Below are positions 32,486-34,148 of a stretch of 64,000 bases of DNA, piece after piece. Position 1 is the first letter of the stretch; each line of letters opens with the position of its first letter. This stretch comes from Escherichia coli (lineage in GTDB: Bacteria > Pseudomonadota > Gammaproteobacteria > Enterobacterales > Enterobacteriaceae). The position numbers and the translations under genes are program-made. Below the pieces are notes generated by a model. The model saw nothing but the letters and a program-made list of their open reading frames with translations. It did not search any database and was not told the DNA's origin. The stretch lies in NCBI RefSeq assembly GCF_001677475.2, contig NZ_CP015229.1; one strand, written 5' to 3'.

Positions 32486-32517
32486 AGCATCTGTTTTATT
32501 TGTTACGTCGTTAGTCA

Positions 32518-32564
32518 CCAGCCCTGACACTACGCAGCGAAAAAGCTGCTCAATGCCAGGGCTG
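32518..32564 (+). terminator. Nested hairpins downstream of malZ (outer stem CAGCCCTG/CAGGGCTG, inner GCAGC-GAAAAA-GCTGC) followed by an AT-rich tract; candidate malZ terminator and left edge of the AT-rich insert
   Basis: Inverted repeats read from the sequence; GC content drops sharply after about 32565. Confidence 0.35.
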
Positions 32565-32670
32565 AATTTGTTAAATATTTGTCCTGATCGATATGAGCGA
32601 TTTTTGGTATTCTTTGCCCATGATGTTATGTACAACATGCTCCAGGATAACCCTGTAGTGGAGCAAAGAT

Positions 32671-34128
32671 ATGACAATTTCAAATTCGAATTTATTGAAA
32701 CCGTTTATTACTGGTACTGAGTTGCCACCTTTTAAAGAGGATGTTTTTTCTAAAACAGAAGAACAATTTAAAAAAAGCCCCCATGGCAAATTACTTTTCA
32801 TTTCCGGAAATGAAAACTTAGTAAACATTTCAGCGGAAAAAATCGATGAAATAAAAAATAGCAAAGATTTCTTTTCAAACATTGTAAATATAATAATTTT
32901 ACTCATTAAGCATCCTGATAAAATTCTGCCCATTCTTCATGGTTGTCCTGCAGAGTCCATCGAACTCATTAAGAATGCGAAACGAACGGGGCAATGGTCA
33001 TATGAGATGACTGATAAGAACGGGCAGAATATTGAAGTGTCCTATATTTTCACTGATACCATAGATGATAAATCTGATGGAAAATTATGCTTAAAAATCT
33101 ATAACTCTTGCAACCAAAATGATTCTAGTACACATGAATATAAAATAGATCATCAACAGTTGAAAAATCACATAAGGCAACTTGAGGAGTGGGCCCTTCT
33201 TGAAAAGTTTTATGATAACAACGCTTATTATTCTAAACGTACAAAACAATTAGAGAAGAAAATTGCCGATGCGGGGTTTATAACAGGGAAGGTTAATGCC
33301 GATAACTTTAATGTAAAAGAGTTTAAAGACGATATAGCCTCGATGCTTTGTGAACAGCCCCCCATGCGTACACACCAGATTTCTTCATCCGGATACTTAT
33401 CTGCCGATAAAGTGCCCGATCTCTATAAGACAAATTTGAAAGACGCGCAGAGAGATCTGAAAACAACACCGGTTGACATCGATGGTGTTAGTCTAAAATC
33501 AAAAACTCGGGAAAAAATTGCAAAAGAAATTGCGAAAAAAACTGAGGAAGAAAATGCGGAAAAAATTGCGAAACAAAATGCGAAGACCATTGAGGAGAAG
33601 AATAGTGAAAAAAACAAGAAAGAAACAAATCCTGAGGATAATTTTGTCTTAAAATTCTCACCGGAAGAAATCAATGAGATGCTCCTGGATTACAGCGATG
33701 AAGAACAAAAAAAATTAAGACCTTTTTTCACTAGTGATCACATGTATTGTTTGTTTGATGCTTTTAGTCAGGGGTTGCATAATGTTGCTCGTAATGGCAG
33801 TCCACGGTATGCAGGTTTACTACGTCAAATAGCATCCAAGTCTGCGATATTACAAGATTTTGATCAACAATTGTTCTGGCGCACGTTTTCAGGAGGAGTC
33901 TTCCATCGACGTATCTCTGTGAACAGCGAGCCAGAAAAGACAGATGTATGGCGATTCAGTACACAATTTGATTTTCCACATATAAATGACAACGGAGAGT
34001 TGTCCAGAACGGTACTCATGTTCGAGGGGGTTGCTGAAAGCAACTTTAAAGATATCGCCAATCATTCCAGCGAATGTTTTTCTTACAGTTGTTATGCCGC
34101 TCCGCTGGATGCGAATGCTAAAAAATAG
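32671..34128 (+). CDS. Hypothetical protein, 485 aa, AT-rich orphan gene not expected at this locus (between malZ and acpH); function unknown
   Basis: Long uninterrupted ORF with GGAG RBS 7 nt upstream of the ATG; base composition far more AT-rich than the flanking core genes; no signal peptide or TM helix; Lys/Glu-rich imperfect repeats in the centre; no motif I can assign to a known family. Confidence 0.7.
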   Translation: MTISNSNLLKPFITGTELPPFKEDVFSKTEEQFKKSPHGKLLFISGNENLVNISAEKIDEIKNSKDFFSNIVNIIILLIKHPDKILPILHGCPAESIELIKNAKRTGQWSYEMTDKNGQNIEVSYIFTDTIDDKSDGKLCLKIYNSCNQNDSSTHEYKIDHQQLKNHIRQLEEWALLEKFYDNNAYYSKRTKQLEKKIADAGFITGKVNADNFNVKEFKDDIASMLCEQPPMRTHQISSSGYLSADKVPDLYKTNLKDAQRDLKTTPVDIDGVSLKSKTREKIAKEIAKKTEEENAEKIAKQNAKTIEEKNSEKNKKETNPEDNFVLKFSPEEINEMLLDYSDEEQKKLRPFFTSDHMYCLFDAFSQGLHNVARNGSPRYAGLLRQIASKSAILQDFDQQLFWRTFSGGVFHRRISVNSEPEKTDVWRFSTQFDFPHINDNGELSRTVLMFEGVAESNFKDIANHSSECFSYSCYAAPLDANAKK

Positions 34129-34148
34129 TGACGCCGGAGCTTGAAGTT

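Follow-up and report, generated by a model that had tools for sequence, protein, structure and literature searches.

The malZ-acpH interval of the Escherichia coli chromosome NZ_CP015229.1 (assembly GCF_001677475.2) contains an old insertion that carries a single gene, for an orphan protein. It was analysed within a stretch of 64,000 nucleotides, referred to here as the window. The inserted or replaced segment measures 1669 bp (32486-34154), has no counterpart in strain K-12, and is delimited by allele alignment, by the junctions in outgroups and by the GC profile. Its left flank is malZ (30668-32485, plus strand), which ends with a TAA stop at 32483-32485. Its right flank is acpH (34149-34730, minus strand), the stop codon of which appears as TCA on the plus strand at 34149-34151. 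A leader of 185 bp is followed by an open reading frame (ORF) of 485 amino acids (32671-34128, plus strand, TAG stop at 34126-34128), which is annotated as 'hypothetical protein' and has the same start codon in RefSeq. The convergent stops of the ORF and acpH are separated by exactly 20 bp (TGACGCCGGAGCTTGAAGTT, 34129-34148), the distance given in an earlier, sequence-only reading of the window.

In K-12 the stops of malZ and acpH are 4 bp apart, in the order ...GATGAACTAA CGTT TTATAA CGCCTTGCG..., and only 10 bp are found where the window holds 1669 bp. The window has the same flanks, GATGAACTAA and CGCCTTGCG, around an insert that begins with AGCATCTGTTTTATTTG and ends with GAAGTTTCAGAG. Alignment with the K-12 region, which the sequence-only reading had proposed as a check, maps the breakpoints to 32486-34154. 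The right edge, placed at 34148 in that reading, has to be moved, because the non-K-12 DNA reaches 34154 and includes the stop and the last codon of acpH. Empty alleles (K-12/BW25113, O121:H19, 2011C_3361, ST131 and O18:H1 were inspected) read CTAA-CGT[T/C]-TTATAA-CGCC, and occupied alleles read CTAA, the 1669 bp and CGCC. Eight occupied alleles were picked across the range of identity: the window, EDL933, ETEC1738, SMS-3-5, O145:NM, 32F4, PapRG-06-5 and THO-010. The junctions are identical in all eight (insert identity 93-99%), which indicates a single insertion event.

The replaced native DNA consists of the 4-bp spacer and of the last sense codon and the stop of acpH. This end of acpH (34149-34154, minus strand) is, by allele comparison, CTC-TGA in occupied alleles and TTA-TAA in empty ones, and so encodes leucine and a stop either way; in other Escherichia species it is TTA or TTG followed by TAA. 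Replacement of native intergenic DNA had been put forward as an alternative to an old acquisition, and the two turn out to be true together. The left breakpoint lies within 32486-32489 and the right one between about 34140 and 34154; the uncertainty of about 14 bp on the right is due to the resemblance of AAGTTTCAGAG to ACGTTTTATAA, which match at 7 of 12 positions. The sequence GTGACGCCGGAGC in the 20-bp spacer (34128-34140) resembles GTGACGCCTGCGC, which is located 35 bp further on, inside acpH (34163-34175). The two agree at 11 of 13 positions, including an exact 8-mer, and the likeness may be due to chance or may be a trace of the joining event.

The ancestral state of the site is given by an outgroup scan, in which AcpH was compared with one genome per species and the site was recovered in 80 Enterobacteriaceae. 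All four representatives of Escherichia other than E. coli (sp. MOD1-EC7003, sp. E1V33, the type strain of E. albertii and a fourth species-level cluster) have the malZ stop, 4 bp and the acpH stop, with acpH ending in Leu-TAA. Since the 4-bp spacer is common to these four, the empty state is ancestral for the genus Escherichia and the segment is an insertion. At the level of the family the malZ-acpH interval is variable. Outside Escherichia, a gene for an AhpC/TSA peroxiredoxin of 200 amino acids usually lies between acpH and malZ, sometimes with an additional 1-4 kb. It is present in most other genera in which malZ is near acpH, and in 10 of the 11 gaps inspected, the exception being a gap of 365 bp. 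The Escherichia species have lost the peroxiredoxin gene and only 4 bp are left, and in many loci of Citrobacter and the Klebsiella group malZ is not within 5 kb of acpH. Neither the insert nor its 185-bp leader has any similarity to the malZ-acpH interval of the 80 other Enterobacteriaceae, and the idea that the insert is a remnant of ancestral interval DNA was rejected on this ground.

The flanks have a GC content of about 0.54, the insert one of 0.29-0.42 between 32500 and 34100 and of 37% over the whole 1669-bp segment. In the ORF it is 0.366, and the GC content of third codon positions (GC3) is 0.34. GC3 is 0.59 in malZ, acpH and queA and 0.59-0.65 across the four backbone genes compared. 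Judged by composition, the low GC and GC3 mark the segment as foreign DNA. A low GC content is also found in two other 1-kb bins of the window, 9001-10000 (0.39; ddlA-phoA intergenic region) and 61001-62000 (0.42; cyoA-ampG intergenic region), the low-GC stretches of which hold no ORF of 90 or more amino acids. The window has the gene order of the E. coli backbone, as checked against the annotation of matching genomes, with proY (29136-30512) on the malZ side of the segment and queA (34949-36019) and tgt (from 36075) beyond acpH.

The sequence-only reading had seen no insertion sequence (IS), integrase, tRNA or att-like repeat at the insert, and this is borne out by a tRNA scan of the 64 kb, by family searches and by repeat analysis. 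The whole window is free of tRNA and tmRNA genes. The 485-residue ORF matches no recombinase or transposase in Pfam or NCBIfam, the ten other ORFs of at least 40 amino acids within the insert match no Pfam family, and none of the frames of the insert holds a remnant of a recombinase, phage or IS gene. The closer alignment that might have brought flanking direct repeats or an integrase or IS remnant to light has yielded none. The two boundaries are not paired by direct or inverted repeats, and att-like direct repeats are absent. There are no terminal inverted repeats, the insert ends AGCATCTGTTTTATTTG and GAAGTTTCAGAG being unrelated, and there is no target-site duplication, the target CGTTTTATAA being replaced and not duplicated. 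The pair ACGGTGTGGATGAA/ACGTTCTGGATGAA and the 8-mer GTGACGCC were considered as att sites or target duplications and rejected, because they occur in the empty-allele sequence too or have both members on one side of the insert. Backbone genes alone, with no recombinase among them, make up the 14 kb to the left and to the right of the insert in the closest complete genome. A tblastn search of 50,697 phage records gave no match, and IMG/VR holds no viral copy. Two matches labelled 'plasmid' are mislabelled chromosomes of 4.9 Mb, which leaves no plasmid copy. The segment does not qualify as an IS element or transposon, as transposase, terminal repeats and target duplication are all missing. The tests for an integrase-mediated island or prophage failed for want of a recombinase, of a tRNA or att site and of phage genes. 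A dispersed repeat of the repetitive extragenic palindromic (REP), bacterial interspersed mosaic element (BIME) or enterobacterial repetitive intergenic consensus (ERIC) type, that is, a miniature inverted-repeat transposable element (MITE), is ruled out because no genome has more than one copy of the insert or of its 185-bp leader.

The claim that no REP or other repeat marks the boundaries stands in so far as none pairs them, but a dispersed repeat does lie nearby. This element of about 126 bp, similar to ERIC/intergenic repeat unit (IRU) sequences, occupies about 34731-34858 in the acpH-queA spacer, immediately upstream of the acpH start codon and 580 bp from the insert. The median number of copies per E. 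coli genome is 10, and a copy with 99% identity or more to that of the window occurs in about 813 genomes. At acpH-queA it is missing from K-12 and EDL933 and found in O18:H1, where malZ-acpH is empty, and in ETEC1738 with an extra internal insertion of 77 bp. The repeat is thus polymorphic independently of the insert.

The depth of variation shows that the acquisition is old. At the DNA level the divergence between insert alleles reaches about 7%. The synonymous divergence (dS) of the ORF is 0.014-0.15 among seven intact alleles, with a mean of 0.07, and that of malZ is 0.002-0.18 among nine comparable strains (six carriers and three empty), with a mean of 0.11; in the strains of the ORF comparison malZ has a dS of 0.06-0.18. 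Since the ORF values approach those of malZ, the residence of the ORF in E. coli is comparable to the divergence of the major lineages of the species. The alleles have also been reshuffled. Over 32784-34170, about 13 sites distinguish the window from SMS-3-5, whereas the malZ and acpH flanks of the two differ by 2-6% per 200 bp. Conversely, the left flanks of 32F4 and PapRG-06-5 are almost identical, yet a 200-bp part of the ORF holds 19 differences between these two strains. The terminal 150 bp of malZ hold only two differences that are fixed between occupied and empty alleles, the diversity within each class is 2-5%, and the flanks contain no long diverged tract. This discordance of insert and flanks, together with the lack of a diverged flank tract, indicates an old polymorphism reshuffled by homologous recombination, and the insert alleles are mosaics, not recent arrivals. 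Import from a diverged species by way of homologous flanks was rejected, the flanks being ordinary E. coli up to the junctions. The view that the insertion is old and not the product of a recent mobile element, already taken from the window alone, agrees with the identical junctions, with the similar dS of ORF and malZ, with the mosaic alleles and with the lack of a recombinase.

The reading frame of the ORF is kept open by selection. About 36 stops would be expected in a shuffled sequence of 486 codons with the composition of the ORF, and 18-58 are found in the other five frames. Among the eight alleles, at least 138-214 substitutions in the ORF include no nonsense change, where 6.8-10.5 would be expected under neutrality; the probability of finding none is about 1e-3 to 3e-5. 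The protein itself evolves fast under weak amino-acid constraint. The ratio of nonsynonymous to synonymous divergence (dN/dS) is about 0.72 in the ORF versus 0.08 in malZ and 0.4-1.0 in every segment of the ORF; the ratio of nonsynonymous to synonymous differences (pN/pS) is lowest, 0.42-0.48, in the last 84 codons. The description of the gene as 'domesticated' is only partly borne out: the frame is kept open, but dN/dS is about 0.7.

Two parts of the gene are particularly variable. The first is a coding minisatellite of 12 bp (33512-33625, plus strand, unit AAAAAATTGCGA, found with Tandem Repeats Finder), each unit of which encodes four amino acids of a linker rich in lysine and glutamate (K/E). 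Changes in its copy number account for the length polymorphism of the protein, which is mostly 469-493 amino acids long in steps of four, with a range of 466-493 that includes all 120 of the listed clusters at 90% identity. In-frame indels of 12, 24, 48 and 84 bp occur, and in the eight DNA alleles a single poly-A frameshift is the sole exception to multiples of 12 bp. The second is a hypervariable central cassette (33457-33870, plus strand, codons about 263-400), in which identity falls to 56-86% per 100 bp. The cassette of the THO-010 type (codons about 263-405), present in about 30 of 1127 carrier genomes, has a dS of 0.42-0.53 from the common allele, with values near 1.0 in the 30 most divergent codons, versus 0.04-0.05 in the rest of the gene; the cassette values are rough, as the most diverged part is short and gapped in the alignment, and the contrast is still about tenfold. 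Such a cassette implies that the alleles are very old and balanced, or that recombination has taken place with a lineage of the family that public collections lack.

A secondary structure predicted with AlphaFold2 at low confidence has an N-terminal alpha/beta region, a long charged helix (residues 277-308) encoded by the 12-bp minisatellite, and a C-terminal region in which a four-stranded sheet comes after five helices. The model suggests a layout of an N-terminal alpha/beta part, a K/E-rich charged helical linker and a conserved C-terminal alpha+beta domain. The full-length model, computed from an alignment of 16 sequences, has a predicted local distance difference test score (pLDDT) of 44.6, and the C-terminal domain alone a pLDDT of 58 and a predicted TM-score (pTM) of 0.49. 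A Foldseek search of the PDB with the low-confidence model returned nothing below E = 0.1, and TM-scores were below 0.35. The protein has no predicted signal peptide and no membrane segment.

Searches for relatives lead back to the same locus. An exhaustive HMMER (phmmer) search of 1.84 billion cluster representatives, which stand for about 15 billion predicted proteins, recovered one full-length cluster, which is the E. coli family itself, and about twenty truncated versions of it. All named protein matches are from E. coli, Shigella dysenteriae or Escherichia sp. A weak match aligns residues 102-158 of the ORF with three near-identical PKD repeats of P0168, an unrelated protein of 947 amino acids, at 31% identity each; its library E-value of 5.6e-6 is inflated by the repeats, and Pfam confirms PKD domains in P0168 and finds no PKD match for the ORF segment. 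No relative was found among the 100,044 species representatives of GTDB with the protein alignment, in a search the sensitivity of which was limited to two exact peptide patterns. When the divergent THO-010 cassette served as the query of a further search, only truncated products of the same E. coli locus came back. The one of these that was checked by its genomic context came from a frameshift-ridden assembly of this locus, and no donor species emerged. By these searches the ORF is a genuine orphan restricted to E. coli and Shigella.

Nor do family libraries assign the protein. It has no significant match in Pfam, NCBIfam, PHROG, PADLOC or the sequences of the PDB. The only PHROG match (E = 0.006) is to a family of unknown function. 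PADLOC returned Cas7e alone, in an alignment that falls on the low-complexity K/E linker (E = 0.022). Cas_CT1975/Cas7e, dynein roadblock and paramyxovirus F, all below threshold and on this linker, were rejected as compositional matches. No PADLOC model of a known defence protein matches the ORF, and its neighbours malZ, acpH, queA and tgt are not those of a defence island or hotspot. No type III effector was matched in Pfam, NCBIfam or PDB sequences, or in fold with the low-confidence model.

The segment is present in 1127 of 5426 complete E. coli genomes (about 21%), always as a single chromosomal copy at malZ-acpH and annotated as 'hypothetical protein'. Carriers include O157:H7 EDL933, O55:H7, O145:NM and SMS-3-5, as well as pig, dog, poultry and human isolates, and Shigella dysenteriae is among the protein matches. 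The non-carriers examined include K-12, O121:H19, ST131 and O18:H1. In the 5426 genomes the flank matches are never split and no other insertion larger than about 1.5 kb occurs at this site; a longer version of the segment was not found in them either. In the numbering of O157:H7 Sakai the ORF is ECs0454, as ECs0453 is malZ and ECs0456 is queA in the supplement of PMC5098033, and ECs0454 does not appear in the available part of the supplementary expression table of that paper. A literature search found no mention of ECs0454, of the WP accessions of the ORF, or of malZ together with acpH or yajB.

Decayed copies exist. In O145:NM FWSEC0002 an A7 homopolymer in the K/E linker (33607-33613) is A8, and the resulting frameshift has led to annotation as a pseudogene; the change could be due to slippage or to a sequencing error. 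In O55:H7 USDA5905 a deletion (3440-3560 of its stretch, equivalent to about 32080-33795 of the window) fuses a truncated malZ to the last third of the ORF, and RefSeq lists both as partial pseudogenes. Both malZ and the orphan ORF are hence dispensable in that strain. Changes in malZ were also seen in DCM188-6, a laboratory knockout in which malZ has been deleted and a Flp recognition target (FRT) scar left (2880-2990 of its stretch), and in 2011C_3361, where malZ is frameshifted.

The leader brings a hairpin and a ribosome-binding site. The insert has, 34 nt past the malZ stop, a compound GC-rich hairpin followed by a T-rich stretch (32519-32564, plus strand), and the hairpin that the sequence-only reading had seen there is real. 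The region folds with -32.2 kcal/mol over 121 nt (z = -2.4), and the hairpin is kept in all eight alleles, with a perfect outer stem of 10 bp in most. It is probably the malZ terminator in carriers; in empty strains malZ runs directly into acpH. The sigma70-like promoter candidate TTGTTA-N18-TATGAG is indeed present (32568-32597, plus strand, 8 of 12 consensus positions, lacking the -7 T) and is invariant in the eight alleles. Its standing as a promoter did not hold up: shuffled versions of the 185-bp leader contain a mean of 1.33 sites of this quality, with at least one in 76% of shuffles, so that a match at chance level gives no evidence of a promoter. A stricter scan found no plus-strand promoter upstream of the ORF. 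The Shine-Dalgarno sequence GGAG (32660-32663, plus strand), 7 nt before the ATG, is invariant in the eight alleles. The leader varies at 0.053 per site versus 0.094-0.146 for the ORF, a difference that is insecure, as it involves only 10 leader mutations. In the 20-bp spacer (34129-34148) no terminator fits, so that the convergent transcripts of the ORF and acpH would overlap. It is plausible that expression is low, that it depends on an activator or on partial read-through from malZ, and that H-NS binds. The 10-bp high-affinity motif for H-NS is not enriched in the insert (4 sites with at most 2 mismatches versus about 2.3 expected).

Taken together, the data are probably best explained by one ancient illegitimate integration of a foreign islet, which has since been kept as a recombining polymorphism and carries an orphan gene with its frame under selection. 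In this explanation an early lineage of E. coli would have acquired about 1.67 kb of foreign AT-rich DNA by a non-homologous ('illegitimate') event, in the 4 bp that separated the stop codons of malZ and acpH. The fragment would have brought the 185-bp leader with its hairpin and Shine-Dalgarno sequence and the single gene of 485 codons, and would have replaced at most 10 bp of native sequence, with the end of AcpH remaining Leu-stop. The machinery of mobile elements would have been uninvolved, or none of it survives. Afterwards the segment would have persisted as a presence/absence polymorphism through vertical inheritance, with homologous recombination in the gene itself and by way of the conserved flanks moving or re-assorting it between lineages. 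Expression would probably be poor, whether driven by a weak promoter or owed to read-through from malZ, and the DNA would probably be bound by H-NS like other AT-rich foreign DNA.

As to the product, it may, with low confidence, be a two-domain protein outside the Sec pathway, cytoplasmic or specially exported, that takes part in antagonism with a phage, a competitor or the host. Antagonism is a tentative choice, if the best guess among the functional options, and is suggested by the foreign origin, the patchy and old distribution, the fast evolution with a protected frame, the linker of variable length and the recombining hypervariable cassette between conserved ends. A serious alternative is a weakly selected or nearly functionless passenger. 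A bolder version, which we consider improbable, is that proteins of the ECs0454 type form an unrecognised family of conflict proteins, in which balancing or diversifying selection has held the presence/absence polymorphism and a set of deeply diverged specificity cassettes at one site approximately since E. coli arose, without a mobile element. If so, the length of the linker would be tuned by the 12-bp minisatellite, and the cassette with a dS of about 0.5 would be a trans-lineage balanced polymorphism or a sign of an unsampled reservoir of the family.

Several points weigh against the explanation by one illegitimate integration followed by selection on the frame. The mechanism of integration is deduced from the absence of signatures, and microhomology at the joints cannot be examined without a known donor. 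The last six bases of acpH, CTC-TGA in place of TTA-TAA, could be diverged native sequence and not part of the insert. The nonsense test assumes equal substitution rates and rests on eight alleles. A dN/dS of about 0.7 and the decay in O145:NM and O55:H7 USDA5905 show that the gene is dispensable and weakly constrained. On the functional side there is no clue from family, fold or context; the AlphaFold2 models are of low confidence, and Foldseek gave nothing better than E = 0.1.

Two rival explanations retain some weight, although we consider both unlikely. According to the first, the segment is the eroded remnant of a larger island or prophage that lost its integrase, att sites and cargo before the alleles diversified. 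Complete erosion predicts the same lack of signatures, the malZ-acpH interval is variable across Enterobacteriaceae (the peroxiredoxin gene with or without 1-4 kb more), and AT-rich orphan genes are often ascribed in the general literature to a phage origin. Erosion would, however, have had to remove every trace of recombinase, phage and IS genes from all frames and to leave the same two junctions in all carriers examined, with a tight fit between two stop codons; in addition, the 5426 genomes hold no longer form, and no phage, viral or plasmid relative was found. According to the second, the ORF has no function and is relic DNA that is tolerated and silenced while it drifts, with an open frame that is left over from its past and not maintained by selection. 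This agrees with a dN/dS of about 0.72 overall and 0.4-1.0 in every segment, with the lack of a recognisable promoter, with the pseudogenised and deleted copies, and with the many fragment clusters in protein databases, at least some of which stem from frameshifted assemblies. It is contradicted by the number of stops to be expected (about 36 in shuffled sequence, 18-58 in the other five frames), by the zero nonsense changes against 6.8-10.5 expected, by the lengths of the 120 listed clusters, all 466-493 amino acids, with repeat-number indels all in frame as multiples of 12 bp, and by the low pN/pS of 0.42-0.48 in the last 84 codons.

It is very improbable that E. coli or Escherichia ancestrally had the gene at this position and that the empty alleles arose by deletion. 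The carriers do include O157:H7, O55:H7 and O145, which we take to belong to phylogroup E, and SMS-3-5, which we take to belong to phylogroup F, lineages usually regarded as early-branching, and the allelic depth of the insert is large. Against this, four other Escherichia species share the 4-bp spacer of empty E. coli. The empty alleles of phylogroups A, B1 and B2 share one junction and have the acpH end TTA-TAA like the outgroups, in contrast to CTC-TGA in the occupied alleles, and independent deletions would not regenerate the outgroup sequence. The GC content of 0.37 is foreign, and no remnant of the insert is found at empty sites. The recent insertion of a mobile element (IS, transposon, integron cassette or phage) with an overlooked signature is hardly credible, since nothing was found in its favour except the ERIC-like repeat 580 bp away, the presence of which is independent of the insert, and since transposase, integrase, terminal inverted repeats, target duplication and tRNA are lacking, the segment never occurs on a plasmid or phage or in more than one copy per genome, and its alleles are mosaics diverged by up to 7%, and by more in the cassette.

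The islet resulting from the ancient integration can be compared with several known kinds of strain-specific DNA, and E. coli genomes hold hundreds of small foreign islets without mobility genes. It resembles the small strain-specific 'O-islands' that E. coli O157:H7, as Perna and colleagues reportedly described in 2001, has relative to K-12: it is strain-specific, has a fixed backbone position, is present in EDL933 and Sakai and not in K-12, has a low GC content, and encodes a hypothetical protein without mobility genes. Unlike them, it extends beyond O157 to about 21% of complete E. coli genomes in several lineages, with deep allelic diversity and intragenic mosaicism. With the ORFans of E. 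coli, the taxonomically restricted genes that Daubin and Ochman are said to have treated in 2004, the ORF shares the lack of homologues outside the species, the AT-richness, the fast evolution relative to malZ and the frame kept open. It differs in being far longer, at 485 amino acids, than is typical, in remaining intact across old lineages, and in carrying a cassette with a dS of about 0.5, which implies an unseen reservoir or long-term balanced alleles. By homologues, composition and rate of evolution, the segment is a taxonomically restricted xenogeneic orphan gene. Xenogeneic AT-rich DNA is reportedly silenced by H-NS (Navarre and Lucchini, both in 2006, are said to have shown this). The insert is like such DNA in having 1.5 kb at 29-42% GC in a backbone of 51-54% and no strong promoter, and unlike it in that the H-NS motif is not enriched.

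Two further comparisons concern the protein. The espX (pentapeptide-repeat) and espY effector genes are likewise single AT-rich genes between backbone genes without mobility genes, and the N-terminus of the ORF is polar, with no acidic residue among its first 16. The likeness is one of layout only, as the ORF has no similarity to any effector family, and carriers include SMS-3-5, which is not known as an attaching-effacing pathogen. A pentapeptide-repeat protein gene is present in ETEC1738 13 kb from the insert, after pgpA (28856-30101 of its stretch, equivalent to about 47100 of the window), and is a second strain-specific single-gene difference nearby. In the window pgpA is followed at that place directly by yajO (47129-48103) and dxs, as in K-12. 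Between pgpA and yajO lies naRNA4 (RF02564, 63.7 bits; 47046-47121, minus strand), the sole Rfam match at the gathering score in the window. With flagellin, fliC, the ORF shares, by analogy only, conserved ends and a hypervariable, length-variable middle exchanged by recombination; it differs in lacking homology, an export signal and any sign of surface exposure.

Structurally the islet is ordinary, and its gene is annotated 'hypothetical protein' in thousands of genomes; it is an uncharacterised orphan gene of an otherwise known kind. What stands out is the size of the orphan, the lack of relatives and the unexplained deep allelic cassette. The locus would be a clean case of illegitimate insertion into a 4-bp gap between convergent stops with both flanking proteins preserved, and of an accessory gene that persists and spreads over the long term purely through homologous recombination. 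It also provides a simple natural presence/absence marker, present in O157:H7, O55:H7, O145, SMS-3-5 and Shigella dysenteriae and not in K-12, ST131 or O121. The frame of a protein of 485 amino acids with no relative among about 15 billion predicted proteins is kept open by selection and carries a very old allelic cassette; the protein, if it has a function, would define a new family.

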